Below are positions 8,821-61,900 of a stretch of 64,000 nucleotides of DNA, piece by piece. Made by a program: the position numbers and the translations under genes. Location of the stretch: positions 32,001-96,000 of IMG/VR virus record IMGVR_UViG_3300017730_000002; one strand, written 5' to 3'. Under the pieces are notes generated by a model that was not told the DNA's origin, ran no database searches, and was given only the letters and a program-made list of their open reading frames with translations. Each line of letters begins with the position of its first letter. Within the stretch, counting starts at the first letter, position 1. Source of the DNA: a virus.

Positions 8821-9687
8821 TTATTTATCCTCAAAGTTGTACATAATATTTCCATCACCATCTATTACCAAACCTTTGTAATCTTGTTTTACTTCTTGAC
8901 CCATTAAGTTATATCTTCTTGGATCCGTAAATACACTACGGTATACATACACGGGACCAAAGGTTTCTTCTTTACCATCTATATCAATCTGAATTAACTT
9001 ATAGTAGTTATATCCATATTCTATACGTGTATCAAAGTATTTATATGTTAGTTCTGTATTACTAAACCCCGCTGCAGGAATCTCATCCTGGTACCCCCAG
9101 GTGGTTCCATCCAAAGATTTATATAAATCAAACTTCAGTGAGTTGTTTTCTGATGCTGTAACCCATTTAACCATATTACCTTGGTCTTGCAAGCTTGCAG
9201 AGAAATCCAACATTTCAACAGGTAATGGCGCTGTATTCCTAATTTCAAAAAAATCAATATGGCAATATTTACCATCTAACAAACCCGATCCAAACGTAGT
9301 ATTAAGAACTAACGCAAAAGCTAATGTTGTATTAGGAACAGTAATCATGTAATATCCATTAAGATCAGATATATCATAATAAAACCAACCACTATCATAA
9401 AAATACAAAGCAAAGACATCACCTAGCCTTACATTACTTTCCTGATACCACGAGACCTCCACTTCTGCATATGTACTAAAATCATATATAGGTGACTGAA
9501 ATACATAAAATTCATTTTCCAAATAGTTACCAGAAAGGTTATAACATAGATCACCACTGTGTGAACCAGTGTTGCCACCAGGGCTTGTCCACTCATCAGG
9601 ACCATCAAATGAGTCAAAAGGTTCAAAAATCTGACCATAACCAAATAAACATAACAGTGTAAATAATAAGAGTAATATAGTTTTCAT
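8821..9687 (-). CDS. Secreted protein resembling Bacteroidota T9SS cargo
   Basis: Signal peptide ending GYG|Q, PLPVEMLDF..W.TASE.N..F Ig-like domain, YYKL.Q.D.DG, C-terminal YNLMGQEV. Confidence 0.7.
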   Translation of the reverse strand: MKTILLLLFTLLCLFGYGQIFEPFDSFDGPDEWTSPGGNTGSHSGDLCYNLSGNYLENEFYVFQSPIYDFSTYAEVEVSWYQESNVRLGDVFALYFYDSGWFYYDISDLNGYYMITVPNTTLAFALVLNTTFGSGLLDGKYCHIDFFEIRNTAPLPVEMLDFSASLQDQGNMVKWVTASENNSLKFDLYKSLDGTTWGYQDEIPAAGFSNTELTYKYFDTRIEYGYNYYKLIQIDIDGKEETFGPVYVYRSVFTDPRRYNLMGQEVKQDYKGLVIDGDGNIMYNFEDK

Positions 9688-10374
9688 ACTATAAGATAAC
9701 AATATCTGCGGACATTCCCAAGTGTAATGGATCTACGGAGGTAGAAATGTTCTATGCAAGACATTGTAGTGACTCTTGTATCAGATGGCCCCCACCACCT
9801 ACCACCCTGTTGGTACCCCCCTATGATTTGTACAGGAGAATGTGTTTTTGCTGACACAAAACCAAAAAAGCATGCTGCTGAGAAAAGTTTAGCAGGGTTG
9901 TGCAAGGTGCAAGACACAGTGGTGCTTTGTGTTGTGTAGTTTCTTTTTGTTTAGTTTGTAGATTATCCTCTGTCACATGGATTAAGTTCCATAACAAGAT
10001 AAGACTGTAAAGTCCAGTATAAAGCAAACTCCTAAGCCCTACAAGTTGAAATCATATACACTTGAGGGCTTTCTTTTTTTTTAGTTTGTAAAGTTTTATA
10101 CTATTCAAAGAAACAATCACCTTGTGTGCACAAGTGGGTGGACAGCATTGTTGAGAAGAGTATATGTAATTAGGGACAATGTACAGTAAGGTACATCCCT
10201 TTCTTTTTTTTTAGTTCTGAGGTGCAATGCAAACCTCCCGCTAAAGCACTTAGCCTTTAACACACACATAAGGGGAGGAACATTCTCAGACGTGAGAGAA
10301 AACAATGGTTAAGGCCCATTGTTTTTTTTGTGTTGTTTCTTTTTTTTTAGTGTTGAACTTTTAAAACCCATACT

Positions 10375-10548
10375 ATGAAAAATACTAAAGTTCAAATCTT
10401 TTCTGTTCCTTGTAATGAGGCTGAAGCCATTACTGCGGTTCAGAAAAAGATTAATCAGTGGCTTACCACTGGCTTATTAATCAAATATGAAATGCACACT
10501 ACTGCTACTCATATTGTGTTTAATGTTGCATTGAGAAAAGAGGCTTAG
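10375..10548 (+). CDS. 57-aa early hypothetical protein
   Basis: MKNTKVQIFSVPC...LRKEA*; between motif copies, ends in hairpin. Confidence 0.65.
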   Translation: MKNTKVQIFSVPCNEAEAITAVQKKINQWLTTGLLIKYEMHTTATHIVFNVALRKEA

Positions 10549-10727
10549 GCCTCTTTTGTTTCTTTTTTTTTATTAACTAAGTAGTGTAACACCTTAAAAC
10601 GATTATATCCTTGATGTGCTAGTGTGCATAACCACACAGGTTTATTAGAAGTCCTTAAAAGTAGCGGAGGAGGTGGCACTACTTTTTTCCTTTATTTCTT
10701 TTTTTTTAGTTAGGAAAATTATATACT

Positions 10728-10868
10728 ATGAGAAAGAAACATTTGATACCCGTTGTTTGGTTTAGTGTAATTATCCTAATTGCAACACTATTATGTTCCT
10801 GTGGATCAGGAAAAGTTAGCTGTGATGCATATGGTTCAATTGATAACACTGAAATAGATAAGGCTTAA
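10728..10868 (+). CDS. 46-aa small lipoprotein
   Basis: MRKKH-hydrophobic-LCSCGSGKVSCDAYG; paralog at 16066. Confidence 0.7.
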   Translation: MRKKHLIPVVWFSVIILIATLLCSCGSGKVSCDAYGSIDNTEIDKA

Positions 10869-10906
10869 CAGCCTTTTCTTTTTTTTTAATTAATAAAATT
10901 AAAAAT

Positions 10907-10993
10907 ATGAAAACAGTTGGATTAGATACGTTTACTACAGTAATACTAATGACATACTTTGTATGTGGTTTAATAGTTGGTTTATGCAGTTAG
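10907..10993 (+). CDS. 28-aa hydrophobic peptide
   Basis: MKTVGLDTFTTVILMTYFVCGLIVGLCS*; fills one motif-to-hairpin cassette, A-rich start. Confidence 0.5.
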   Translation: MKTVGLDTFTTVILMTYFVCGLIVGLCS

Positions 10994-11046
10994 GGGCTCT
11001 CGCCCCTTTCTTTTTTTTTAATTGGGAAATTTTAAAATATAATACT

Positions 11047-11394
11047 ATGAATGAAGAAAAATTTATTGATGTAAATGGTTTCCAAGTTATGGACTTAGCT
11101 CCTGATATGCAAAGAAAGTTAGCTTTAGTTGATTTAGATGTGTTAGTTGAGATAACAAACTCACTTCAGAAAGTTAACTCTCGTATAATTAAGCAAGATT
11201 TAATTGCAGAACTTCAATCTGTAACTAATAATGGAGAACTAACGCGAATGCAACAGTTGCTGTATATTTGTGAAAAGTTTGTTACACTTCACAAGACTGT
11301 TTTGAAAATTCAAAATATTGAGCATCCTTTAAATGAAAAAGCAGTAGCTGACCTTAATCCAATTAAAGGTAAAGACATTAGTGACATAAGTTAG
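11047..11394 (+). CDS. Early hypothetical protein
   Basis: Start MNEEK after motif copy 8. Confidence 0.7.
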   Translation: MNEEKFIDVNGFQVMDLAPDMQRKLALVDLDVLVEITNSLQKVNSRIIKQDLIAELQSVTNNGELTRMQQLLYICEKFVTLHKTVLKIQNIEHPLNEKAVADLNPIKGKDISDIS

Positions 11395-11447
11395 TGTATA
11401 GCCCCTTCGGGGGCTTCTTTTTTTTTATTTGTGAAAACTTAATTACT

Positions 11448-11810
11448 ATGGAAGAAGAATTTAAAATGGTTTGTACTGCCTCTAAAGGCAGTTATGGCAC
11501 AGGGTTTGAAGACGTGTTTGATAACATTGAAGACCTTAAGAGAGCAATTGTAAAACACGAGTGTAATCCTTGGGATGAAGAAGACAACACTTATACAGAA
11601 GATAAGTATACTGATGAACTGTTTAAGGAGGTTTGCAAAGCAAAAGATTATACTGTTGTTATTGTAAAACTTCACTCATCAGAAAAGATATCATTTGATG
11701 AGTATGACGGGACATCATCTCCTTATATTGAGAAGATAGACCCTCAGTTTAAATCTGTAATGGAATATGCAACAGAAAGACATTGGGACTTATTGAACTC
11801 AAAGGAGTAG
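11448..11810 (+). CDS. Early acidic hypothetical protein
   Basis: Start MEEEF after motif copy 9. Confidence 0.7.
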   Translation: MEEEFKMVCTASKGSYGTGFEDVFDNIEDLKRAIVKHECNPWDEEDNTYTEDKYTDELFKEVCKAKDYTVVIVKLHSSEKISFDEYDGTSSPYIEKIDPQFKSVMEYATERHWDLLNSKE

Positions 11811-11928
11811 CATTTCATAGTGCAGGGGGTAGTTCCCTTGCACTTTGTTTTGTGTATATACCACAATTTTTTTGCAAAAAATTGCATCTTCCTTTTTTCT
11901 TTTTTCTTAATTATGAAATTTATTTATT

Positions 11929-12345
11929 ATGAAACATCAGAATTATTATTACAATTACAATTTTGCAACCAAGCAAGAAGGCTTGAGTTCATTAGACTTT
12001 GAAGAGTGTCTTAAGCAATGCACATTAGTTGCAGGTAACATAATGGCATTAGACCAATTTAATGCTATCGTACCTGTAGATGAATCCCAATGTGTGGACA
12101 TTCCTACTGCAACTGCCACTGCAAATGGCAATGGCACTTTCAGAGTACCTACCTATCCTATTGAGTTATTGGGAGACTTTACCGTAATAGAAAGAGAGTT
12201 TGACCATAGACCTTGGTTTAAATGTTGGGTAGGCAAGGGTGGATATACAATAGGGGAAAGAAATGTCAATAAAGGCTGTTTCTCTATAGTTGAAACTCAT
12301 AAAGGCTTTGTGCTGTATTTGGGACAAAGATACAGACAGTACTAA
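11929..12345 (+). CDS. Early hypothetical protein
   Basis: 138-aa ORF after motif copy 10. Confidence 0.7.
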   Translation: MKHQNYYYNYNFATKQEGLSSLDFEECLKQCTLVAGNIMALDQFNAIVPVDESQCVDIPTATATANGNGTFRVPTYPIELLGDFTVIEREFDHRPWFKCWVGKGGYTIGERNVNKGCFSIVETHKGFVLYLGQRYRQY

Positions 12346-12519
12346 TATTTCATAGTGTGGGGTGTAATAGCCCTGCACTATAAATAGGTTGTCCCGTTGG
12401 GGCATAGGGCTATTGCTGTACACATATGTGGGTAATCACAATTTCTTTCAGAAATTGCATCTTTTCAGTTTCTTTTTTTTTATTTAGGAGTTTATTTATT
12501 AATTAATATATGATTTCAT

Positions 12520-12939
12520 ATGAAACTTAAATTTGAGTTTAAAGCAGATGTCTATAACGGCATCACAAGACAAGTAGCAAATTTTACAGGTACATTAGTA
12601 TCTATTGCTAAATTACCAATCAAGAATGTCAATAACACAGAGTATTACCCTGCAACTGTTGATATGAAAGATTCTCACGGGAATGTTCGTAAAGGTACAT
12701 CTTGTATGATTTACAAAACATCCTTTGACAAAGGTATGGAGATAGGACAAGACTATCTTGGCTCCGTTACCATTGAATCAGGTAAACAACCACTTATTAA
12801 GCTTACTTCAGGTACAGGCAATGGCACTCGTGCTACTATGGACGACTTTGACTTCCAAGTTGCTCCTGCACCACAACCTGTTGCACAACCTACTCAGGCT
12901 ACTACAGCCACAGAGAGTAACCTAAGTGACATAGGATAG
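12520..12939 (+). CDS. Early hypothetical protein (beta-rich, possible OB-fold) with Pro/Ala/Gln tail
   Basis: 139-aa ORF after motif copy 11. Confidence 0.65.
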   Translation: MKLKFEFKADVYNGITRQVANFTGTLVSIAKLPIKNVNNTEYYPATVDMKDSHGNVRKGTSCMIYKTSFDKGMEIGQDYLGSVTIESGKQPLIKLTSGTGNGTRATMDDFDFQVAPAPQPVAQPTQATTATESNLSDIG

Positions 12940-13365
12940 GACAATAACACTCTGCACAGCAATGTGTGGAGTGTCCTTTCAGGCTTCGCCTATCTTATTT
13001 GTTTCTTTTTATTTAGTTGTTAGTGTTCCACGTAACAATAAATAAAGTAATTATGGTCGTAAGGCATAGTATGTCCCTAAATGGTCATAAGAATACTTAA
13101 CATTGTTGGAACACAGATAGAATTGCGGAAATACTTATGTGTCTTAATCTGTTTTAGATAGTAAAACTATACCCTATATCATTGGTTGTATATTAATATC
13201 ATAATTATTCTATAGTATATAGTATTATAATATTTTATATAGCTAACTTTTTCATAATAGGTTAAGTAATAATAGTTGTTTTCTTATATATAGGATTAGT
13301 ATACTCTCTATATAGAAGATAAGATACATAGTATCCCGCATTTAGATTTGTTTGAATAGATTTAG

Positions 13366-13605
13366 GAGGGAAAACCTCGGTCATAAGGTGGGCTCTTATG
13401 ATTACTGTTGACTTAGGTTCGCTACCTTCGTTGTATCAGGGCTTAGATGTTTCGTCTAGGGTTTAATAATGCCTTTGGGTTCAACTTTTCTTGGTTGGGC
13501 AAGTGCTTCGCACTTCTTGAGTATTCAAACATTAAATAGGTACAAGTAGGGTGTATTCCCGTAAATTAGTTCTTGCTAAGTTGACAGAGAGTCAAGCCTT
13601 TTTTA
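13366..13605 (+). ncRNA. Putative structured ncRNA (~240 nt)
   Basis: ORF-free; serial hairpins (GGTCATAAG/CTTATGATT, TAGATG/CGTCTA, AAGTGC/GCACTT, TTGAC/GTCAA) ending in U-tract. Confidence 0.5.
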
Positions 13606-13615
13606 TTTACAAACC

Positions 13616-14410
13616 TATGACTAGAGAGTCGGTCATAGTATAAATGGAATAGAAATTAGAAATTGTATAGGTTCTAACGTAATTTTAAAAGTTAGTATAG
13701 GCATACAACATATGCTTAGAGGTCTGGATGACTGTCTGTCCTTAAATGTGAACTATACTATGCAATATTTTCTTTTCGCGATTTATTATCATTTCTAATT
13801 GATATGCTTCGGCTATTAATTAGTCTTAATCCCAAGTTGTCGGGATTTAAAATCACAGATGTTGAACTGTGATATGAATTCGTTCTAATAGACAAAACAC
13901 CGTGTAATCAGTACCTTTCTTGTAAGGGGAGCAGTTGCACACAAGGGTGGATAGGACAAAGACCTTACAGGGTTCTAAAACTATCAGTGTTATATGTAAA
14001 GAGTACGGTCTGTAAACTGTACGTGGTTGCATATGAAATTAGGGATTTGAGCTACTATCCTAGTAAAACGTAAAATGCTAAGTCTTAACTAAAAACAAAG
14101 AACTGGACAATGACGTGAAGTCTAAAGCTTATGGTGTAATTAGAAGTGCCTAATCATAGTTTAGAAATGAACTGTGTTATCCCGCAAGGGGTTGTGAATT
14201 TTATGTGCCAGCATAATTGAAGCAACACTTAATTGAGATGTCATTGGCCAATGATATTGATAGAGAGTAGAATGATTACATCTTATCCTGTTACTATGCA
14301 GTCGATCATAGTATGGCAAAGTTAATGAAGGATTTTTCTATCCGTGTGCTAACCCTTACAAATTGAGGGGTCATTAACATTTTGAACCGAGTAGTGCTAG
14401 GTTCTTTTTT
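13616..14410 (+). ncRNA. Putative giant structured ncRNA (~0.8 kb)
   Basis: No ORF >=60 aa; many nested helices, cUUCGg and GCAA tetraloops, terminal terminator. Confidence 0.65.
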
Positions 14411-14431
14411 ATTCACTTAAAACATTTTGAA

Positions 14432-14695
14432 ATGGAGACATTTGTATCTTACAAAAACAAAGTAGTTAATAGACGTAATGATGATCTCGCTGAGAGTAAT
14501 TTAGTCTATCCTATTGGTAAAGGGTATCATCAAGTAGCGCAACTTGATAAATCCTGGGTATTAAAGTATTTGCGTTTGAAATTAGGTCGTGGAGTTAAAG
14601 ATATTCATAACAAGTATGTAGTTCGTATTAAGAATGATATGCTTGTATATAACTGTGACGGCAAGTATTGGTTAATTAAAAAAAATAATGACTAA
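14432..14695 (+). CDS. Hypothetical basic protein
   Basis: 87-aa ORF, A-rich start. Confidence 0.65.
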   Translation: METFVSYKNKVVNRRNDDLAESNLVYPIGKGYHQVAQLDKSWVLKYLRLKLGRGVKDIHNKYVVRIKNDMLVYNCDGKYWLIKKNND

Positions 14696-14918
14696 AGAAG
14701 AAGCATTAGAAAAGACTAGAAAGAAATTCACTAACCTCTTTGATGGAGATATCCTTCCAAGGGTTAGTGTCGGTAAGATTATATCTTACTATGAATCACT
14801 TATTGCAGGTAACAAACCTATAGTTACTGATAGAGATTGTAATATTACAAGAGCATTCAATGAAGCATCGAATTATGATATGATGGATGATCTTGATGAA
14901 TATTATGATGGTATTTAA
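14688..14918 (+). CDS. Hypothetical protein
   Basis: 76-aa ORF overlapping upstream gene. Confidence 0.65.
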   Translation: MTKEEALEKTRKKFTNLFDGDILPRVSVGKIISYYESLIAGNKPIVTDRDCNITRAFNEASNYDMMDDLDEYYDGI

Positions 14919-15102
14919 CCTGACACAGCGGGTTAATAGAGGTTGTACGGTCCAAATTTACTCTATAAAATCTTATGGGACCTATGCTGGTAACAGTTCC
15001 AGACACGGAGATGAGATGAAACCTTAGACACTTAATTAATGTCTGTATGGGATTAAGCCGTGAAAGAATGAGGGTAGACTGTGAAAAAAACTACCCTCTT
15101 TT
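14917..15102 (+). ncRNA. Putative structured RNA with possible pseudoknot and terminator
   Basis: Several helices; loop GGTCC complementary to downstream GGACC; GAGGGTAG/CTACCCTC + U-tract. Confidence 0.45.
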
Positions 15103-15129
15103 TATTTATTTACTTAAAAACAAATTATC

Positions 15130-15543
15130 GTGAAATTATTTGATAAAAGAATTAACTTAGATGTAAAAACAGAAAATTTAATTGGTCTTGCCATAGGTAT
15201 AGACTCGTGGGGTAAAGTAGATGTAAGAACTAGACAGTATCAACTGTTAATCTTATGTTTTGTAATAGAATTACAAACAAGAACTACTATTAAAGAAAAA
15301 ATAGTAAAGAAAAATCTATACAAGAAGAAAAGGAGAACAACTCGTACAGCTAAATTTATAGCATTTATGTGTGGATTATGTATGCTTGCATCTTGTTTGG
15401 CTATATATGAAGCTCTTAATGCTACTACAGGTGCTACTGCATATTCTTTTACATTAGTATCAGCAGTATTTTTAGCTTTATTTGTAGTGATAGGCATAAG
15501 TTATCTCATTATGGATAATAAAGAAAAATACTATGTTGAGTAA
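15130..15543 (+). CDS. Membrane protein (2 C-terminal TMs)
   Basis: GTG start, hydrophobic helices. Confidence 0.6.
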   Translation: MKLFDKRINLDVKTENLIGLAIGIDSWGKVDVRTRQYQLLILCFVIELQTRTTIKEKIVKKNLYKKKRRTTRTAKFIAFMCGLCMLASCLAIYEALNATTGATAYSFTLVSAVFLALFVVIGISYLIMDNKEKYYVE

Positions 15544-15721
15544 ACTATTAACTAGATGGATTATATATTTTTTACTATTTGAAATGTTAATAGTGTTAGA
15601 TTATATTTTAGAAATAATAATACCTTGTGTTTATTATCTTTATACTCAAGTATTGTAAAGACATTGCAAGTAGGTAACACTACTTGCATTTTTTGATTAA
15701 TTATTTATTTAAAAACAAACT

Positions 15722-15859
15722 ATGTTACAACCCACAGATGAATGTTACATCTACATTAAAGATGGAAAAGAATTATTTACAGGATCGTTAGAATTAGCTC
15801 ATAAAAGAGCAGATGATGACACCACAATTAAAGTTGTCAAAATTGACATAATCACTTAA
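15722..15859 (+). CDS. 45-aa hypothetical protein
   Basis: MLQPTDECYIYIKDG...; A-rich start. Confidence 0.5.
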   Translation: MLQPTDECYIYIKDGKELFTGSLELAHKRADDDTTIKVVKIDIIT

Positions 15860-15871
15860 AAATTAAAATTT

Positions 15872-16069
15872 ATGACTGAAATTATGATTGAAGAGATTCA
15901 GGAATTGCACATTGCAGTACACCAAGAAGCAATCTCACCAGAAGAAATAGAAGAAAAGTATGAATGTAGACTTACTGTTAAGAACATAAGAGAAATCAGA
16001 GATATATTATCTCGTTTGCATATGCAAGCTATGTGTCCACAGTTTGGTTTACCAAATTTTGAAATATGA
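15872..16069 (+). CDS. Hypothetical protein
   Basis: 65-aa ORF. Confidence 0.6.
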   Translation: MTEIMIEEIQELHIAVHQEAISPEEIEEKYECRLTVKNIREIRDILSRLHMQAMCPQFGLPNFEI

Positions 16070-16236
16070 AAAAAACAATTACATTATTAGAACTTATAAA
16101 AATTGTATTACCAGTTGTTACTGTTGTTACATTAGTATTAATTATGTCCAGTTGTGGAACGGGACAAGTAAGCTGTGATGCTTATGGTCAAAATGATATA
16201 GAATATGGGGACATATCAGAAGATGAAGCAAGCTGA
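16066..16236 (+). CDS. 56-aa small lipoprotein
   Basis: MKK-hydrophobic-MSSCGTGQVSCDAYG; ATGA overlap; paralog of 10728. Confidence 0.7.
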   Translation: MKKTITLLELIKIVLPVVTVVTLVLIMSSCGTGQVSCDAYGQNDIEYGDISEDEAS

Positions 16237-16417
16237 AGCAGAGTACAAAGAGTTAGAGAATGATATCAGTACTGATGAGAAATCAAAAATGTACTGGAGT
16301 TCTAGAGAAAAGTATCGTTCATTAAAGTATGAATATACTATTCAAAGCTCTGTGCTTATATTAGTAGTGTTTGCTGCAGTAGCAGTAATTGCAAGTATTT
16401 TATTCGGAGGTGTGTAA
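16205..16417 (+). CDS. Hypothetical protein with C-terminal TM
   Basis: 70-aa ORF. Confidence 0.55.
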   Translation: MGTYQKMKQAEAEYKELENDISTDEKSKMYWSSREKYRSLKYEYTIQSSVLILVVFAAVAVIASILFGGV

Positions 16418-16443
16418 TGCACCTCCACAAATTATGATTAGAA

Positions 16444-24052: not shown

Positions 24053-24126
24053 GCACCCATAGCTCAGATGGATAGAGCAACTGCCTTCTAAGCAGTAGGT
24101 CTTAGGTTCGACTCCTAATGGGTGTA
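24053..24126 (+). tRNA. tRNA-Arg(TCT), CCA not encoded
   Basis: Cloverleaf: GCACCCA/TGGGTGT acceptor, ACTGC-CTTCTAA-GCAGT anticodon arm, GGTTCGACTCC T-arm. Confidence 0.95.
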
Positions 24127-32512: not shown

Positions 32513-32583
32513 ATTTCATTTTTATATTTGTAAGTAAAGGGAGGATTTTTTAGTTCTCCCTTTATTGTCTAAAAACATATTGT

Positions 32584-33564
32584 ATGATTTCAACTAAAAA
32601 TTTAATTTCTGATTTAAATGATATACCAACAGGATGGGCTTTTGAATATTACCTAGGATTATCTGAAACACTTGATGGCCAAGATGTCAAGATAAGATCT
32701 ATAGTTAATACCAGAGAGCGTACTCCTTCAATGTGTATTTATCTTAATGCTACTACAGGAAGATATTGTTTTAAAGACTTTTCTTCAGGCAATGGTGGTG
32801 ACTCCGTAGAACTTGTTAAAATTATTTTTGGCCTTACACGGGGACAATCAGCTATGAAAATTATTGAAGACTATAATCAATATGTTTTAAACAATGATTG
32901 TAATCCTATAAAAGAATATAAAGTTCATAGTAGATATAAGGTAACTGATTATGAGATAAGACACTGGACAACAATTGATCAAAAGTATTGGACAAAGTTT
33001 AATATTGGATCCAGGCTGCTTGAAAGATATAATGTGGCCCCGCTACAGTACTATGTGATGACTAAAGAAGATAATGATGGTAAGGAAAGTTCTATTACTA
33101 TTAAAGGTCTTAGTCTATATGGTTACTTTAAAGATGATGGTACATTGTACAAAGTTTACCAACCTAAAGTTTCTGATAAGAAATTTATTAAGGTTAAAAA
33201 TTACATCCAAGGATCTGATCAACTAAAATATGATAAGAAGTATCTTGTAATTACATCTTCACTAAAAGACTTAATGACCTTTGAGAGACTTAAGTTAGAT
33301 GATGCAGAGTCAATTGCACCTGACAGTGAGAATACTTTGATACCAGAGAGCATGCTCAAAAGTATAATACCAAAGTATGAAAAGATATTTGTTTTGTTTG
33401 ATAATGATGAAGCAGGTATCAGATCTATGAAGAGATACAAAGAGAAGTATGATTTTGATTACGTGATTCTAGATATGGAGAAAGATTTATCTGACTCTAT
33501 TAAGGTACACGGTCTTACTAAAACTAGAGAGGTTTTATTACCCCTATTAAAAAAGTTGATATGA
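32584..33564 (+). CDS. DNA primase (Toprim)
   Basis: ERTPS..FKDFSSG N-terminus; SSLKD, FDNDEAG, KDLSD. Confidence 0.85.
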   Translation: MISTKNLISDLNDIPTGWAFEYYLGLSETLDGQDVKIRSIVNTRERTPSMCIYLNATTGRYCFKDFSSGNGGDSVELVKIIFGLTRGQSAMKIIEDYNQYVLNNDCNPIKEYKVHSRYKVTDYEIRHWTTIDQKYWTKFNIGSRLLERYNVAPLQYYVMTKEDNDGKESSITIKGLSLYGYFKDDGTLYKVYQPKVSDKKFIKVKNYIQGSDQLKYDKKYLVITSSLKDLMTFERLKLDDAESIAPDSENTLIPESMLKSIIPKYEKIFVLFDNDEAGIRSMKRYKEKYDFDYVILDMEKDLSDSIKVHGLTKTREVLLPLLKKLI

Positions 33565-49905: not shown

Positions 49906-52900
49906 TTAAAATCCACAGAAATCATCTGTTCTATCTATTGGAGGTTTACCCTTAGGTCCAAATTCTTTTTTAACATCTTCTTCAAATTTACTTAAGTCTC
50001 TCTGATCCATACGGAGAGTACCATCTGGATTACGTACTACTCTTCCAGATAAATATCCTGGAGGTTGATCACCAGTTGTTGTATCGGTAGTAAAATCAGT
50101 ATTAAGATTTCTTCTAGTTAAAAAGCTATCTGTAAGAATTTGTAGAACTTGTTTATTAGATAAAAGATTTAATAACCACTTGGTAAACTTCTTCCACCAG
50201 TTTAGAGCTTCACCTTTTTGTGCTACTACTTGTTCTCCTATAGCTTGAACTAAAGCTTCTTCCCCACCAAATCTTCTTATTCCTTCCTGAACAAGTTCAT
50301 TGTCTCTAAAGTATGCAATGTAATGATGAGCATACTCATGAGGCAAAGTATCTTGTTTTTGGTTTGCCGCATCAATTAAAACAGTCATAGCTTTTATATT
50401 AGCCTGACCTATAATTTTATCTTTGTAAGTTTGATTTAATAAATATAAATCACTAAATACATTAGTAGTGCTACCATAAACAAGTTTATTTGTTAAACGA
50501 CTGTTTAAATCAGTTAAGTCTGCTAACTTTTGAAAAGGTGCTTCATAACCAGTAAACAAGCTCTCCTGAACTTTATCCCATTGATCTGTAGCAGTCATAG
50601 AAAGCACTCCTTCAGCTATACCATTGTTTAAGTCTTTAAATAACTTACCACTTGATTCTGCAGTTACAGCATTTAAGAACCAACCTGGAACTGGAGCCAT
50701 TATATCTCCTGCTGTATTTATATCTTTATCGTCTGCAGTAAATTCATCTTTATTAGCAAGTACATATTTAACCAAGTCTTGTTTAGCTTTTAATTTTACA
50801 TACTCTTCATTTTTTTTACGTTCAAGTAAGTCATTACTATTATGAAAATAGGTAGGGCTTGTTAGTCCTCGCAAACCATCAGTAATACCATTAGTAGCTA
50901 GGATATCTTCTGCTAAATCACCAAGACCACTTTCTATGGCAGATGATGGTGCAGGTCCGTAATAATGCTCCCAAGACAGCTCAAACTGAGATATCCTTCC
51001 TTTAACAAGATCAGCTTTTCTTTGCTCAGGTGTTTGAAATTGTACTTTAAGTCTTTGTTTTAATAACTCCTTTTCTAAGTTTTCTAAAGCTACATAATCA
51101 ATTCCTTTTTTGATTCTGTCTGTATTATTTTTAAAATCTTTTAAAGCAAGTTGTGCATCAATCCAACGATCATCAGATGATGTGACTTCTTCACCACTAT
51201 AATATGTTACATCTTTATATAACTTTTCCCCAGTAACTGGATCTTTTCCAGCACGTTCTCTTCGTTTAGAAGGTACTCTTTCATATAACTTATCTAGTTT
51301 ACCATTTATAAAGTTATATGTATATATACCTTCTTTTCCTTGTAAGTTAAAATCTCTACGAACACCAGGAAATGTTTTAGTAATGTATGGACTCATACTT
51401 TGACCAATATCAAAATAATTCTGAGCAGTTACAAAAAGTTCAAATAAATCCTTTTTAGTTTTTGTACCATTATCAAATCCTGAAATAGTATCTTTAATCT
51501 TTTTAATTTCTAGATCTGCTAAATACTCAAGATCTTTATCGGCTTGTTCAGCTATTTCAATGTCTTTAATGTATTGAGGATTATTAGGATCCATACCGCT
51601 TTTTTCTCCTTCCTCAAGTCTTTTAAGTTCTTGTTGAGTTGACCAATCAAGAATTTCTTCACCGTAAGTATCATATAATAAATAACCTAATGCATAAACA
51701 TCTAAAGTAACTCTACCTCCATACTCTACGTTTATATACTTATAAGGATCACTCTTTATAGCATTTTCCATTGTAGCTAAAAAAGCTACTTTATTTTTAC
51801 GGCTAAATGCATAAAATTGAGAAGCGGCTTTTTTTAAAGGTGCTGTTAATTCTGCAATAACTTTTTGCGTTGTTTCTTGAGATCTTTTCATCTCCTGATT
51901 GAACACATCTGGACTAGAATCAAATCCAATGGGATCATTTGTAAAATTCAGCTTTATGTTAGGATACTTTTCTCTTAATACAGCTTCAATTTTCTTAGAT
52001 AACTCTTCACTAAATTTAGTATCAAATCCAGTGGTGTCAGGACCTAAAATTATTTCAGGGTTTCTACTCACAAAACTTTCAAAACCTTTTAAGTCAGCTT
52101 CATTACCTAGTATATGTATTTGATCTATATCATATACCACATAAATATCTGTAGGAGTTGGATCCATTGTATTTTTTATAATAGAAGAATCCTTATTAGT
52201 TTCTTTATCTTCTTTTATAATAGCAGCAAATGACTTATCTCTTCTAGTTTGTTCTTTTTGCGTATAAGTACCAGGATTTTTCATATCCAAAATAACTTTA
52301 ACTAAATTTCCATCAAATGCAGAAAAACCTTCTTCTCTTGTTTTTTTTATAAACTCAGAAGCTTCTTTAAATGTTAAGTTCTTTCTTATTCTTTCATCAG
52401 ATTGAAAAGCATCTCCAGTTTGTTTAGGTTTTAAATAGACAGCATATTTAATCTTGTTATCATAAAATTCATTTGCTTTTGCAAGTCTACCTTTTTTAAA
52501 TGCATATAATGTAAAAGAACCACCGTCATCATCCATTACATTTCGAGGCTTTTCAAAAAATTCCTCTTGCTGTTCTAAAGTTGATTTATCATATAAAGTC
52601 TTTAATATACCATTAGCATCAATAGTATCTTGTTCTATGTATGTACTAAAAGGGTCCGCTGTTAAATATTCTAAAGCTGTTGAAGGGTTATCTGCAAAAA
52701 AGAACCCTTCTTGTGCAGATGAAGATCTAGTATAAGATCCAAGTTTTTCTTTTGAAAATGGTTTAAAATTTTCATCAGTACCATGATATAAAATATCTTT
52801 TACTTGACTATTTGGGAATATAGATTGTATGTATTCAGCATATTGTTCTTTTGTACCAATAGCAGCAAGCTCAGGATTTTCAGAAAACAGCACATCTATT

Positions 52901-55900
52901 TCAGGATTAACTTGATCAGTAACCATTAGCTTACTAAACTCGTCATTGAAGATAATGTTAGATGGTATAGGTCCTGCAGATGCAAACATCTCTGCCATCT
53001 CTAAAGGACTATATCCATTTAGATTTCTACCTTGTGTTGTGTATAAAACATATGCATTTCTACTAGGATTTTTTGTATAGTAGTCATACATATTTTTTAT
53101 TTGATTTATAATCTCATCTTTAGGAACCTGTCTAGCAGGATCATCCATAGGAAGTTGCCAATCAGTTACGGTTTGTATTGCATAAGATGAACCTTCCGTA
53201 CCTGTTTGAAATCCTCTAGGTTGGCCTACTATAACTCTAAGACCCTTACCTTCAATCTTTTGTTTTTTATATGCTCTAGAATCATTAGCATATAGAATAC
53301 CAGCTGTACCTCCACCGTGGAATCCATCTTGATTAGATCCAAATACAGTATCTTCATTACCTTTTAGGTTTTTAATATCAACAAGACCTGTATAAGTTTT
53401 AACCTTAGCAGGCGGTTGAGTAGATTTATCTATGTTTCCACTTTTTACAGCATTATGTCTAAGTGTAATACTAAATCTTTTAGACTTATTTCCTTCAGCA
53501 TCTATACCATGTTTATAATTGATTTGCCCATCTTTACCCATTATTAAACCTAGGCCAGATTTCATAGATATTTTATATTCTTTTTTACCCTTTAGAATCA
53601 TAGTTCTTTCATCACCAAAACTTATAGTTACTACAGAAGGATTTAACTTACCTTTATTATTTAATATAGGCTCGTTGTCTGTATGGAATCCTATTTTTTG
53701 ACTACCATCCTTATATTCATTTATAAGAACCATATCAAAGTATCCATCCTCAAAACCTAAATCTCTAGTTATTTTAGAGACCAACCTTTGAAGTTCAACA
53801 CTTCCTGTATTAGCAGGCCTAGTTGTCCCTGAATAAGAATAACTTTCATCAGAAAAATACATACTGCGTCTACCCCTACCAAATTTATCAGAAGACTTAT
53901 GCTCAGATTCATAAGTTTGATCATACAATGTTTCTATAAAATCAAAAACTTTTTTAGACTCTTCGTTTGTAAAAACTTGTTTAGTAAAAACTTCGGCATC
54001 TTCTACATTAACACTTTTTAAACCCTTGGTATTTACTAAACCATTAGTAAGTAAAGTTGCAATGTCTAAATCACTACTTTGATCTGTTGGTTGAACAGGA
54101 GCTATAGGAGCACCATATTCTTTAGGATCTACCACTAAGTCTATAAACTTATCGGTTGACATTTTACCAAATTTTAAAAGCTTCTTAAATACAAATTCAA
54201 AAGTAGCATCATTGCTTTGAGCATCTGTGAAATTCTGACCAGCTACATTCATTATATTTACAAAGTTCTCATAAGGAAGAACATCAATCATTGAATCTCT
54301 ATTATATCCACCTGTACCATTTTGATATATAGATATCAAAGGTAACCTCGCAAATAATCTAGACAATCTTAAGTTCTCAGCTCTATCAGCTACTTTCTTT
54401 ACAGCAGGGTCTGCAAGATCTTTTAAGTTTTGGTAATAGATATCGCCAAGACCTTCTGTCTTTTTTACTTGAGATATGTTTCGTAATGATAAAACTTTTA
54501 TACCAACATTATCACCAAACTGTTTAGGAATATAAAGCTGCTCAAGTATAGGATACTTTTGCTTTAAATCTGCATTTCTGTCTATACTGTCAATTACAGT
54601 TTGTGAATAAGAATAAGCTCCTGTTCCCATAATTACAGATCTATTATAAGAATCCAGAAGCGCTTCTTTATTCAAGAAGTATTCATAGGCTTGTTTTGTA
54701 GCATTCTCTTCAGTAAAATTAAACTGAGTTTTTAAAGTATTCTTAACAGCAATAAATTCTTTGTCACTAGATATATTTTCTAGTGGTATTCTAGATCTTA
54801 AATACTCTCTTGCTATTACATACTTTTTATACTGTATAACATTATCAAATATATCTTTATTAAAAGTTCTTAGACCTTCTTTAGGATATGTTATAGAATT
54901 TTTTAGATAAGCTTTGTTAAAAAAGTCTCTTTCTATTTTAGCATTATCTACATATATAACATCTGACTGTTCTGTCATATTAGCCATTGCACCTCTTTCT
55001 ACACCTTCTCTGTTTATAATCTTACGGCCCATGTATGTTTCAGGAGTAGATGTTAGCTTACCATTAGAATCCACAAAACCTGTCTGATAGTTTTGGAATA
55101 TATAATCCATCAAACTATCTTTAAATCTTGTTATAAGTAAAGACTTCTCATCTCTGGTTGCTCTTATAAAAGGAAGTTCTCTCTTAAGAAAATCATTAAC
55201 TCTGTCATTATTTCTAAATTGAAACACAGGAGTTACAATATCTTTAATAAGATCACCTATCCTGAAGCTACTTAATATAGATTCTTCTCTTAGTTTTCTT
55301 ACAAGCTGTTGATCCACCTTTGTTAGATCAGCTAAACCTTCATAATTAGCTTCTTTAAGAATTATTTCTTGTAGTGTTCTTGATGTAGTTGTATCAGGAT
55401 TAGACTGAAGCTTTAAACTTGTCAAACCTTTTAACTGCTTTTCAATTTCTAAGAAATGAAGAAACATATTTAATCCTACGTTATTTGCTCTAGGATCATT
55501 TGAAATAGTATCTCTATTTACAGAAGCCATATCACTAGTAGTAAAGACATCCTTATCTCCCATTCTTCTACTTAAAACATCATAGAAGTTTTTATTAGTT
55601 ATATACTGGTATACCGTAATATCTTGATAATCTTCTGTTGTAAACTCAAGTAAGCTACCCTTTCTATTTTGTTCAAGAGCTATTTTTTCAATAGTTCTAC
55701 CTGCAGCTTCGTATTTTACAAACTGGCGCTCAACACCTTCTGTTGAATACTCGCTACCCAGCTTTCTCTGTTGAGCAGCGTATTCTATTACATAAGGGTT
55801 AGATACAAACTGTACTGCTGACTTAATTGGAACACCAGCTTTTATTAAGTACAAAAGTATCGGAGCTACCTCTCTATTACCTTGAATGTTAAACACCCAA

Positions 55901-58900
55901 GGATCCTTTTCAATATCTACAAATCCATTTAACAATTGATTATAAAGCTCATTAATGTTATTACCATCTTTTGCTGTAACATCCGATATTGATATAGATC
56001 CATCAGGAAACTCATTATGTGGTAAGAATAGTCTCATATTATAATCACCATCTGTAAGTGTCCAGCCGCTTTTTATAAAATTAGGAAGACTTGTCTCTTT
56101 AATTACTTCTCTTTTGCCTGCTTTATCTACTACAGTAACGGCTTTAACATATCTCTTAGTTGCATTATCATATATTTCTGGAGAGTATTTTTTAGGCATC
56201 TTACCTCCTTGGCTGTTTATTATAGGACTTAATGCATTTTCTATAGCTACAATACCAAGTACTCTTTTACCTATCATGTTCTCAGTATGCTTCTGTAAAT
56301 TATAGATAGGCTCGATTGTTCTTGTTGGACTTATAACCTTTGTCTCTTTGCCGTTTTTATCTACTTTAATTTTGACACCTTGACTTCTGTTAGCGTATCT
56401 ATCATAAGTTGCTACATCATCTCCAATTTCATCAGCTATCTCTTCTTTTAATAAATAAGTAGCATTAGGTTTTACTAAGTTAGCATAGTTAGATTTTAGA
56501 CTAAGTATCTCAGCCATGTTAAACATTATATCATTTTGTAAAGCAAGCTTCTTAGTATTAAATATCTTTTTCTGAGTAGCTTCAGTAGACATGTTTGCCA
56601 TCTCAATAGTCTTTTCTACAGAAGAATTATATTCAGTCAAAGACCCATCAGAATTTATGTTAGGAAAAAATATATTAAGCTTATCAATATCAAAGTCAGA
56701 TCCTGATTTAGCAACTATCTCTGTTGGAAGTATTATAATGTTACCCGCACTTGCTGGAAGAAATTCATGAACCTCACCAAATTCCATATAGTTAATACCT
56801 CCAACAGGAATACGTGTACCTACTATGGTAACCTTTTTTCTATTTTCACCATTATTAGCATCTAACCACTTTTCGTCCTTTATAAGCTTATTTAAATTAG
56901 CTAAACTAGCCTCTTCATCTAAAACTCTAGTTGTATTTTCTACACCAGAATCATCTATATATGTTTCTTCTCTATATACAGCAACGTCATCAAGTCTTAA
57001 AAGATTTTTAAAACTACCTTGCATCGCAATAGCTACTTTCATACCTGCAGTACTACCATCTTCTGGTTTAGTTCTGTAAAAAGGTAAATCGTTTGTACCT
57101 CGATATTTTTGAATGTCTGCTGTACTTGCTGTTTTGTACTCAGCTTGATTCCACATACCGTTGGTCAAAGCACTAGAAACTTGAACTAAAGACTCACCAT
57201 TAATTCTTTGATTAATAATTCTTTTTTGAATTAGATTAATTATCATTGACTCAATATCACCAGCTTTAAAGTGATATGATAAATCAGTTTCTAAAGTTCC
57301 ATTTACATTCTTTCCTACAAATTCTATTTGATGTTCAGGGACATTTCTTCTGCCTAATTCTCTTTGAACTAAGCTTAAGAAGTTATTAATATTACCTATA
57401 TACTTATCGCCTTCTTTTCTATATCCTATTTCAGACAAAAGCTCTTCTTCTAAAATCTTTTCATAATCACTTATCAATTTAGCGTATCTTTCTGCAGCAT
57501 CCTTAGCATCAGGATCTGTAATAATACCTCTATTATAGAGATCTTTTAAGATCATTTTTCTAAACTGAGTAGAAAATATAGTTTGTTTTTTAAACTTCTT
57601 TGGAACGCCTGTTACATTTTTAAGATACTCTACGTAGATAGTATTCATAGTAAAGTCAATATCACCCTTTAGTGTATCTTGCTCTTTATTCTCAGCATCA
57701 AAAATTATATCAGCGCCTTCTGGATTAGATGCTATATGTGAAACTTTAGAACCTGTCTTAAATAAAGAATAGTGAATACTTTTATCCATCATTTGTTCAT
57801 GAAGACTTTCTAATTCACCAGTCATTACCCCAGGTATCAATGGCATAAGTGAAAATTTATGCATTGAATTAACAGGTAACTTAGCTTGTTTTATACTACC
57901 TGAATAGAATAACTTATATGGCGGAAAGAATTCAGTAACTTCATTTATACCCACATATTCTCCTCTAGAAATTTTTTGAAACAAAGCTTCTTGCTCATAG
58001 CTCCAATCATTTTCTAAAAATCTTAAAGATCTGTATGCATCAAAAGTAATATAACCTTGGCCATCAGCCTCTTCCATTCCTTTATAAACACTGAGATCTC
58101 TCTTTACAAGTTCATCTACTCTAGCTTTATCAAAGTTTTTACTATAGAATTCTCTGAGACCCTTTTCTATCTGATCTAAATATTCACTGTCTCTTTCAAT
58201 GTCTTTCATAATAGCAGTATTTAAACTACCATCATACCTAAGAGTCTTCTTACCATTTTGCTCTGCATAAGAAGTCTTTTTTAAATGACCATTAACGAAT
58301 GTCTGAGCTGCTTTATCTACTCTAAAAGTTTTACCACCAGACTTAGTACCAGGAGATCTTTTTGAAAGCTCTTCTTTCTCATGATTGTATTGTGATAAAT
58401 CACCTTCAAGTAAATTTGCAGTTTCAAAATTATGAATCCATGAATTATACACATAAGCCGCAGCTAATAATTTCTGTTGTCCAAGTGGATCTTCAGTAAT
58501 TTTATTAACCTCTTCTAATAAGTTCTTACTTAAATAGTCATTTTCTGCAATTTTTAACCGAACCTCAGTTGCTAACTTATTAAAATACTCATTTATTTCA
58601 CCTTTTATCTTAGCTTGTAATGTGATGTTTTCATTTTCTAAATAAGATTCTAAATCAAAAAACTTACCTTCATTTTTATCAATGATGTCATATATTTCTT
58701 GCTTAGTATCATCAGTTAATACGTCATCAAATATTGTAAATGACTCACCTGCCATTCTACCATTAGTAAGTTTATTATTAAATCCTACATAGTTTTTAAA
58801 CTCTGGGTTACTCTTAAACTTATGGATCCTGTTAGCTTCAGAAGCTAAGTAGCCCAATATAAACTCATTGTTTATTAACTCTTGAGTACCTCGATAATCA

Positions 58901-61900
58901 CTAAACTTGTCTATATCAATGTATAAATTAGAGTTCTTTTTATTAAGATCAAATCCTAACTTACTTTTAATAGACCCTGTAAACTTTAAACCAAATGCAG
59001 ACTTCTTAGATGCAGCTCTAATAAACTCTTGTGTTCCACCTAGCAGCATCATGTGAAGCTCTTGTGAGAACTTAGATCCTTCATCTAAGTCAGCGGTATT
59101 AGTACCTCCACCTGTTTCTTTAGTAGTACCAGAATCTAAGAATAATTCAAGATTAGCATTTTGTATACGCTTGCCGCTTGTTGCAGTAGAGTTTAAAGAA
59201 TACATACTTCTTAAAAGTACTGACTTAGATGTAAAAGGATTTATGTCAGGACTAAGATAATTCATTGGATTATTTTCACTATCTATAAGATTTTGAAAAT
59301 CTTCTGCATCATTTATTTTGGATGTTCTTGTAGATACTGTATTATTTTCTATATACTCATATACTATATTTCCTTCTGCATTCTGTACACCAAATATATT
59401 AGCCGCTTCTCCAAATCTTCCTTGTAAACGTGCTATTCTATCTATCTGAGTTTTTTGAGACGTAGCAGATGTAGACGTAATGCTTTTATCTAAAGGTCTT
59501 TGAAGTGTCTTAATGGGATCCTGCAGTAAGTCAGATAATCTATCAGTTTGTGTTTTACTTAAAGGCGCATCCTGAGTGCTTACTTTATCATATACATTTT
59601 TAAGATTACCATAGATATATTCTAAACCATAAAATCTTTGACCCTCTGATGAAGTTAATTCGGTTCTTATGGTATCAATATTATCTACATATAAACCAAT
59701 TGCTCTAAGAAATTCTACAGACTTAGACGTATCAAACTTGCCATTTTTACCAAAGTCTTGGATAACCTTTTCTAAATTTAACTCTGTTATTTTTGAAGAT
59801 GGGTTCAGTGTTGTGTATGGGTTATCCATATCACTCATGTACTGATTTCTAAACGTATTAATAACATTTCTAGCATCAGCAGATGCATTATTTACTTTGG
59901 CTGTATCATCCTTAAATAAAGTTAGCTGTATATAAGGTACTCTTGACTTATTAAAATCCTGCCAGAAAGATGTAGTAGCTTTAAAGTCATAAATATTATT
60001 AGCTGCTATACTTGGGTTGGGAAGCTTAGTTGAAGTCAATTGTTTAAAAGGTGCATACATGTCACCTGCCTTAACCAGTTTATCATACATTACTTGAGGA
60101 TCAGATTCACTTGCAATAGTTCTTACAACATTATTCCACGTTAACCTAAAGTCAGCAAGCTTTTTAAATCCTAAAGAGTTTAACTTAGTCTTGCCACTCT
60201 TGTCTGTGTCATGCAGACTTTTAAGCATGTATATTGTTTCCTTACCTGCAAACTCTAATAATGATTTATCTCCAACTTTTTTATCAGCAAATCTTTCACC
60301 AACTTCTTCAGCTGTATTTTCATCCTTAGTAAGTTCATCTTCTATATATGTATCTGCTAGAATCTTATATGTACTGTTTTTCAAATGGAAACCTACCGTA
60401 CCATCTGTTGCTGTGCCATAGTTTTCTACAGCAGCTGTAAGTACTCTTATGTTTTCATCAAGCTGATCTACTACAAATTCATTCTCCTCGGCAACTTCTA
60501 CTCTTTGTGTTTTAAATTCGTTTAACTTTTCCTCAAGTCTCTCTTTTATTACATCATATAAAATAGACTTTTTACCAGGATCCAAAACTAACTTAAGAGC
60601 CATGCCTTTATTATTTTCAGAGTCAGTGCTTCTTAAATCCATAGTAACTTCATCAACTATATCAGATATAATTGAATCCATACTATCTTTAACTAAAAGA
60701 GATTCGCTTCTTGTTAAAGCTTGTTTATCGGTACCAGGTTCTGTAATACCTATGTTTCTTTCTAACTCATCAAACTGTACATTCTCAATGGTAGGTGTAT
60801 ATTTATTGAGACCTTTGTTATAATAAAGAGCTTCAAACATTTCTTGAACCATTTGAATTTCCATTACATTAGATGCATATCCTACACCAAACAACTTTTT
60901 TAAGAAATTTAATATTCTTCTAAAGAAAGTATTTCTTTTAGGAGATCCTTTTTTAGCTTTTGGATTTTTAGCATAAGTTCTAAACTCTTCTGCAAGAATT
61001 TCTTCTATTTCCTGAACACTATAATTTTTACCACCTTTTAAAGATTTTTTAACTTCTCTATATAGAGCTCTTTTTTCTTTAGGTGATAAAAACAATTGTG
61101 TAAATCCATGCCATGCTTCGTGATATAAATCAACTGATGAACCTTTCTTAGCGATCTGTATTGTACCATACTTACCTGCAAGAATACCGCCATATGAAAT
61201 AAACTTAGCAAATGCATCTGAGTTAACTATATTAACTCCTACCTCTAAATCTAAATATTTACTAAGGTCAGATTTATTCCACCAATCAATTGCTTTTTTA
61301 TTTTGCTCAGATGTACCTTTATCTTGAGTTAATGTTCCAGATCTTTCTAAACCAAATCGTTTAGCTATACCTCTTTCATAAGGTGTATTTGTTCCTGCTT
61401 TAGTTGTAGCATCATCTATTTGTTCTTCCTTAGATTTAGTCTGTCTATTTTTATACAGCTCTTTATAGTAAGGTACTCTACTATCTTCCTGAGCATAAAA
61501 ATCAGTTTCTTGAACATTGCCAATAACTTCCCCAGTAGTACTATCCACTACAGATAAGAGTTCGGGTATAAAAATTTTAGTCTTGTTATCAATTTTTTCT
61601 TCTATTACAAATGTTATAGGCGCACCTACCATAAAGGGAATTGTGACATTTCCATATTTATATTTATCAGCAAGATAGATTTTCATTGTTTGACCATCCA
61701 CAGGTGATTGAAATAGTATATATGCATAAGGACCTTTACCACCAGGTCTTTCTCCATTTTCTACTGCAGATATAGTAGTTGTAGTTACAGTACCAGCATT
61801 CTTTACAAAAGCTGCAAGAGCATCTTTTCTTTTTCTAATTTCAGATGGTTGCTTTTCTTTAGCATCTTCTAAAGATTTAGTTACTTTACTGGGTATAGCA

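Follow-up and report, generated by a model that had tools for sequence, protein, structure and literature searches.

Trans-acting small RNAs of bacteria and phages are typically stand-alone units of about 100 nt, with several hairpins and a 3' hairpin that is followed by a U-tail. Among phage early control regions, the A1, A2 and A3 promoters of T7 lie at spacings similar to ~130 nt, and the virion RNA polymerase of phage N4 has hairpin-containing promoters. In T4-type phages, small early genes are separated by so-called PeSL cassettes, composite stem-loop structures that combine a terminator with a putative early promoter (PMC2839356; PMC4122927). Differences between the genomes of these phages consist of insertions, deletions and replacements of whole cassettes, with the junctions in the repeat (PMC2839356; PMC4122927). 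In the crAss-like Cellulophaga phage phi14:2, an injected virion RNA polymerase transcribes the early genes, no common motif was found upstream of the early transcripts, and the intergenic regions g004-g005 and g005-g006 yield abundant non-coding RNAs, transcribed rightward and high from the earliest time point (bioRxiv 10.1101/2020.03.07.982082). We observed that the g005-g006 region (NC_021806, L009, 4031-4502) holds a tmRNA-like gene, for which ARAGORN gave the tag peptide GSSVQKLAMVA; the Rfam tmRNA model gave it 46 bits (E = 2.6e-16), where the gathering score is 47.

Here we describe an array of short cassettes in a window of 64,000 nucleotides, which comprises bases 32001-96000 of a 109,286-bp IMG/VR virus record (completeness estimate 93%; G+C 32.6%). 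Like PeSL, the array has a repeated short terminator joined to a conserved element between small early genes, here in 12 copies with a hairpin upstream of each, and the junctions of indels and replacements between close relatives (L100-L108) coincide with the repeat. Unlike in PeSL, the conserved part is not of the sigma-70 type, being a T-rich TTTC-N9-ANTT box without sigma-70 hexamers; the carrier is not T4-type but crAss-like, with a candidate for a virion RNA polymerase; and several cassettes carry a structured RNA in place of an ORF. The locus resembles that of phi14:2, a crAss-like phage of a marine host, in having stretches free of ORFs close to where the rightward early module starts. 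The phi14:2 regions differ, however, in that they are long (~0.7-1 kb) and not short repeated cassettes, one of them contains the tmRNA-like gene, the early transcripts have no upstream motif in common, and the four ORF-less units of the window (U1-U4) show no sequence similarity to them. In their size, hairpins and 3' hairpin with T-run, and in the exposed loop of U1 that is complementary to start regions, the units resemble trans-acting small RNAs, although, unlike the described ones, they match no RNA family. Closely spaced putative start signals at the head of an early region, with a hairpin before every copy of the motif, also recall T7 A1-A3 and N4; different here are the terminator that closes every unit, the conserved unit interiors, and the hairpins, whose sequence and distance to the motif are variable.

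The reading that we favor, and hold to be fairly probable, is that U1, U2 and U3, together with U4, are autonomous small-RNA genes carried in terminator/promoter cassettes of the PeSL kind, which head the early module of a crAss-like phage. Its basis is the anatomy of the units, their non-coding nature, their modular presence and absence among relatives, and the conservation of their sequence and structure.

The source phage and the position of the array

Genes of the window run leftward to the left of ~9700 and rightward from ~10375 to 43800, and the U1-U3 array forms the very head of the rightward module, directly past the divergent junction. That this region is early is suggested by the likeness of its layout to that of phi14:2. 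A 4572-aa protein encoded at 49906-63624 (- strand) contains DFDID at residue 2310, which is the catalytic motif of phi14:2 gp66 also (bioRxiv 10.1101/2020.03.07.982082). A 901-residue stretch around this motif matched 83 phage records, all of them Crassvirales, including crAss002 ("putative RNAP catalytic subunit") and Cellulophaga phi14:2, and a PDB sequence search with the protein gave no match. We regard the protein as a candidate carrier of a crAss-type virion RNA polymerase core. Residues 3238-3389 of the same protein form an AlkB-like stretch that matches phrog_21963, and its 2102-aa neighbor had no match in the cultured-phage collection. No DNA match to the array region was obtained in that collection, and the DNA polymerase of the phage is only ~35% identical to those of cultured phages. 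Because the polymerase-core matches are confined to Crassvirales and the DNA polymerase identity is so low, the source is an uncultured marine phage, crAss-like but distant, that has a candidate for a virion RNA polymerase. Pfam and PHROGs returned nothing for the small early proteins or for a 288-aa neighbor, and these proteins therefore lend no support to any host phylum; the hosts of such marine phages are presumably Bacteroidota.

Several other features of the surroundings were observed. A C-rich element, CCCCCACCACCTACCACCC..GGTACCCCCC (9783-9822), is found at the divergent junction immediately ahead of the early array. It is also present in relatives (L093 4230-4265, L094 1786-1816, L099 2782-2815, L100-L107, and L160 at ~214-250) and persists even in those with a DNA polymerase identity as low as ~67%; it may serve as a control site, an origin or a packaging site. 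Directly past the last motif copy, ~3.4 kb (12940-16440) are without any ORF of at least 100 aa. A 127-bp "terminal repeat" of the relative G025 looks like an assembly overlap, and has no bearing on which genome end enters first.

The boundary element and the units between its copies

The boundary element was searched for as a TTCTTTTTTTTTAGTT-type pattern, with the consensus TTTC-N9-ANTT (TTC-N9-ANTT). Copies with few mismatches start at 9941, 10071, 10201, 10337, 10560, 10696, 10876, 11008, 11415, 11897, 12470 and 13003, all on the + strand, and this run of 12 same-strand copies is confined to 9941-13018. Copy 1 (TTCTTTTTGTTTAGTT; 9941..9956) stands at the head of the array as the putative promoter of U1, copy 2 (10071..10086) doubles as the T-tail of U1's terminator and the putative U2 promoter, copy 3 (10201..10216) was identified by the motif search, and copy 4 (10337..10352) precedes the first early gene. 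The original prediction had given the spacings between these four copies as 130, 130 and 136 nt, and the motif search reproduced them. When up to three mismatches were allowed, the window held 38 matches against 8.6 expected, and with at most one mismatch the whole genome held 10 forward matches and 1 reverse match, compared with 0 for a control pattern. A hairpin lies 0-20 nt upstream of each motif copy, and terminator-like sites within 9600-13200 numbered 12 against 1.6 expected. Sigma-70-like sites were not enriched (10 vs 13.2 expected), and none was located at the motif. The motif is a separate element, and more than the U-tract of a terminator, because its C-to-A gap is exactly 9 nt in every copy, even where the T-run is interrupted, and because the U3 terminator has its own T8 tail, which is followed by GTGTTGT and only then by motif copy 4 (10319-10352).

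Eight of the motif-led units hold a small ORF, with its ATG 17-35 nt past the motif, and four units, U1-U4, hold none. In all ORF-less families, which include three further ones (V, W and X) in the arrays of relatives, the structured part starts 0-10 nt past the motif, and this fits transcripts that would start at the motif or just past it. It was also observed that ORF-less cassettes mostly start with AGTT-TGTA(A/G)A (window 10087-10105; the starts of V, X and U1 in relatives) and coding cassettes with A(N)TT-(A/G)(G/T)GAAA, which may represent different initial transcribed sequences. Each unit had been proposed to have its own promoter and terminator: a hairpin with a T-run does close each of them, and the motif precedes each of them as well as the neighboring small genes, its role as a promoter being putative.

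In U1 (9957..10070, + strand, ~114 nt), a long 5' hairpin is followed by a small one, ACUG/CAGU, and then by an unpaired stretch, and the terminator hairpin (10034-10071) has a loop of 13 nt (10047-10059). U2 (10087..10200, + strand) is formed by a long imperfect hairpin, TATACT...AGTATA, which encloses AACAAT/ATTGTT and CACC/GGTG, and by a terminator hairpin (10173-10199) that is followed by the T-run of the next motif copy. U3 (10217..10336, + strand) comprises helix P1 (10217-10253), hairpin P3 (10284-10297) and a terminator (10299-10325) with its T8; a possible pseudoknot pair, CCUCC (10234-10238) with GGAGG (10274-10278), is only partly supported. The first early protein gene (10375..10548, + strand), which encodes 57 aa of no known family, comes next, and past it lies U4 (10576..10695, + strand), closed by a 5'-3' helix and then a T-run. 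In U2, U4, V, W and X alike, the RNA is closed by a helix that joins its two ends.

Much of the original description of the array was borne out. The three hairpin-rich units without a credible ORF are there, and U4 adds a fourth; all of the listed hairpins are present; U1, U2 and U3 each end in the strong hairpin described, and the T-run that follows it gives it the form of an intrinsic terminator; and the units do differ from one another, with no sequence relationship among U1-U4. The statement that each unit folds holds in part: the hairpins are present, and compared with shuffled sequence the + strand folds are unusually stable for U1 (z = -2.4) and for U3 (z = -3.2), but U2 (z = -0.4), as well as U4 (z = -1.0), is no more stable than its shuffles. 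With regard to the suggested antitoxin mimics, a ToxI-like type III tandem-repeat array is excluded because the units have no sequence in common; the neighboring 57-aa gene is without a known family.

No ORF was found within any unit under table 11. ATG-led frames in U1 and U3 span just 2 and 5 codons, and non-canonical starts provide a 28-codon frame in U2 (from ATT) and a 31-codon frame in U3 (from CTG). When TAG or TGA was read as sense, only frames running across the T-rich motif appeared. Searches of the units with Rfam 15 and for tRNA and tmRNA, at permissive thresholds too, remained at chance level (best ~20 bits, E at least 0.3), and the sole tRNA found is a tRNA-Arg at 24053.

Cassette exchange and conservation among relatives

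Relatives were collected by a metagenome scan with alignment of the 57-aa first gene, which gave 57 loci. In nine loci from marine assemblies (L100-L108), the 57-aa protein is 81-98% identical to that of the window, and the same motif is present. The cassette order, which is U1-U2-U3-gene-U4 in the window, reads U1-gene-W-X in L101, V-U1-gene in L100 and L105, V-U1-U3-gene in L106, U1-U3-gene-W in L103, U3-gene in L102, V-U3-gene-W in L107 and, from the contig start, U2-U3-gene-W in L108. Order is constant among L100-L108 and the junctions fall at the motif or the adjoining T-run, as expected from recombination between repeated boundary elements. Each cassette is dispensable, since every one is missing from some relative. 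Homologues of U1 occur in L100, L101, L103, L105 and L106 (96-99% identical at aligned bases); the sole homologue of U2 is in L108 (97% identical), and none of U4 was found among the relatives.

More distant relatives have other conserved elements past their terminators (AACAACTCTTACT in L093, AAACATTTTATACTTATAT in L099), and they also show ORF-free stretches among their first genes. Such stretches, with different inter-cassette motifs, were seen among the first early genes of L093 (4680-4957) and L094 (2467-2645 and 3120-3828), relatives whose DNA polymerase is ~88% identical; the stretch in L093 lies past that phage's own promoter-like motif and forms a closed hairpin, AAAAGCTATG...CCATAGCTTTT. 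A covariance model of U3 detected no further homologues in 59 fetched loci and 0 in 50 related virus records (DNA polymerase 61-97% identical to that of the window); because the latter records gave none, these RNA families are taken as limited to a narrow cluster of strains. Scans of IMG/VR for the exact cores of U3 and U1 gave one chance match in GC-rich DNA and nothing else, and a scan for two motif copies 95-125 nt apart returned only an unrelated phage, whose T-run leads into a TTTACA-N17-TATAAT promoter of the classical kind. A side observation concerns the unrelated phage L097 (IMG/VR 3300001598_001791), which has three consecutive hairpin-T9-AGTTTAC elements at 600-900; a classical TTTACA-N17-TATAAT promoter comes after the T-run there, and two ORF-less units of ~135 and ~110 nt lie between the elements.

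The units were compared with the synonymous sites of the first gene. In the comparison with L107 and L108, identity is 64-66% at the third codon positions of the 57-aa gene, whereas at aligned bases it reaches 93% for U3 and 97% for U2; for U1 it is 96-99%, in comparisons that give 84-93% for the third positions. This better conservation of the units points to constraint, although recent cassette exchange between lineages, instead of selection, could also produce it. The conservation is not that of a coding sequence, for no reading frame is common to all copies of any family. Relatives of U3 have stops in all three frames, the ATT-led frame of U2 is shifted by a 1-nt insertion in L108, and one frame of U1 is open across the unit in four relatives and not in the window or L101. 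Indels in the units are 1, 2 or 4 nt long, that is, not multiples of three. The original view that no credible ORF lies between the motif copies is thereby upheld, since the candidate frames are broken by indels or stops in relatives.

The structure, too, shows signs of conservation. In the alignment of six U3 sequences, 6 of 46 paired columns are variable, compared with 52 of 84 unpaired columns (p = 4.5e-8, with the structure partly derived from the same sequences and gap columns counted as variable). Helix P1 (CUGAGGUGC/GCACUUAG) is 100% paired in 6/6 sequences and shows two independent compensatory pairs, G-C to A-U in L102 and C-G to U-A in L108, and additionally one change from G-U to G-C. 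For the 5' part of U3, the hairpins GAGGT/ACCTC and GCTAA/TTAGC had been proposed; they are present, but P1 is better supported, since these hairpins show no compensatory change and GCTAA/TTAGC is paired in only 79%. Signs of covariation across related phages, to which the prediction had pointed as a check, were seen in U3, where 14 of 500 shuffles reached the observed values, and in U1 as a single stepwise covarying pair (U-A / U-G / C-G); U1 is nearly invariant and so carries little structural information. W has one compensatory pair (G-C to U-A) across seven sequences, which include two relatives whose 57-aa protein is only ~70% identical to that of the window. The families have 2 to 6 homologues each (6-7 sequences in the U3 and W alignments), a thin basis for covariation.

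The 13-nt terminator loop of U1 is invariant in 6/6 copies and has complementary sites elsewhere in the window. A 12-nt site (12507..12518, + strand) occupies positions -13 to -2 relative to the start of a 139-aa early gene (12520), and a 13-nt site (32583..32595, + strand), complementary to the loop plus three stem bases, covers the start codon of a primase-like gene (32584-33564); both are regarded as leads only. All sense-strand sites with at least 11 bases complementary to the loop are in start-region windows, and 0 of 3000 shuffles of the loop region reached two or more such windows (mean 0.02-0.03). These targets were counted by exact complement, RNAduplex energies over all start regions being erratic and uninformative. 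A third start-region match lies inside a long gene, is probably spurious and was discounted. The 12507 site is intact in L101, L103 and L106, which are all of the U1-bearing relatives that reach it; of two relatives without U1, L102 retains 11 nt of the site and L107 lacks it. The loop holds the complement of TATATGA, a frequent start context of this phage, which may explain part of the signal. Antisense pairing of the U1 loop with the start regions of these two phage genes is offered as a post hoc lead, and a doubtful one.

Competing readings and a proposed mechanism

The units could be empty or decayed gene cassettes that have lost their frames and are carried neutrally, along with their promoter and terminator, by recombination at the boundary element. 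U2 would suit such an origin, for it retains a coding-type leader, TGTAAAGTTTTATACTAT, with ATT in place of the ATG of coding cassettes, and its open 28-codon frame ends in the terminator loop. The U1 frame that is open across the whole unit in four relatives agrees with it too, as do the absence of each unit from some relatives, so that none is essential, and the absence of U3 from the 50 more distant ones. Neutral carriage is hard to reconcile, however, with units that outdo the synonymous sites of the 57-aa gene in conservation, with U3 substitutions that are either compensated or outside helices, and with the retention of W where the 57-aa protein has diverged to ~70% identity. Decay also leaves unexplained why no frame is common to all copies of any family and why units that lack an ORF and have their 5' and 3' ends closed by a helix turn up in seven unrelated families, and we consider it unlikely.

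A role in cis, with the units as stacked early promoters that load polymerase or pull the genome in, or as a leader or attenuator of the first gene, would make the sequence between motif copies mainly a spacer. Conserved interiors and helices would be needless in a spacer, and a strong hairpin with a T-run in each unit should stop the transcript before the next one, even though the units do stand at the very head of the early module past the divergent junction and the ~130 nt spacing resembles that of the T7 A promoters. U3, where present, is always directly upstream of the 57-aa gene, as a leader would be, but this gene has its own motif copy and in some relatives is not preceded by U3, and ORF-less cassettes (U4, W, X) also occur past it; a cis-acting role is therefore, in our judgment, very unlikely. 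Translation of micro-peptides from non-canonical start codons could draw on the ATT-led 28-codon frame of U2 and the CTG-led 31-codon frame of U3 in the window. These frames are shifted or stopped in relatives, indels are of 1, 2 or 4 nt, ATG-led frames reach only 2 and 5 codons, and reading TAG or TGA as sense yields only frames through the T-rich motif, which together make micro-peptides hardly credible.

In the favored reading of the units as small-RNA genes, a cassette would extend from the conserved TTTC-N9-ANTT element through to the hairpin terminator, whose T-tail would abut or merge with the next copy of the element. The element would act as an early promoter specific to the phage, and the injected virion RNA polymerase may be the enzyme that reads it. 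Most cassettes would carry a tiny protein gene, and U1-U4 a folded RNA of ~100-115 nt instead. Repetition of the boundary element would allow recombination there, by which related phages could lose or swap whole cassettes. Promoter activity, transcription, timing and function of the units are what we infer from this arrangement; as a best guess, the cassette RNAs would act in trans as early regulators or decoys, and the exposed 13-nt loop of U1 could pair antisense with the translation start regions of the two phage genes. A more specific version can be imagined, in which TTTC-N9-ANTT is the promoter of the crAss-type injected RNA polymerase, the ORF-less cassettes are immediate-early trans-acting small RNAs shuffled by recombination, the U1 loop times translation of the primase-like gene and the 139-aa gene, and the other RNAs are decoys against host defense; as a whole, we regard this version as speculative and quite unlikely.

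Although crAss-like phages rank with the most abundant of known phages, the signal at which their injected RNA polymerase starts is undefined; phi14:2 is the one studied model, and the function of its abundant early non-coding RNAs is unassigned. The array is a compact natural test set, in which one boundary element heads tiny genes as well as small structured RNAs, at least four of them and unrelated to one another. Natural variants carry each RNA or not, and for one RNA, U1, there is a concrete candidate for a target. Should the element be a promoter and the RNAs be made, the array would offer access to early transcription of the crAss type and to early RNA-based functions of phages in marine hosts.
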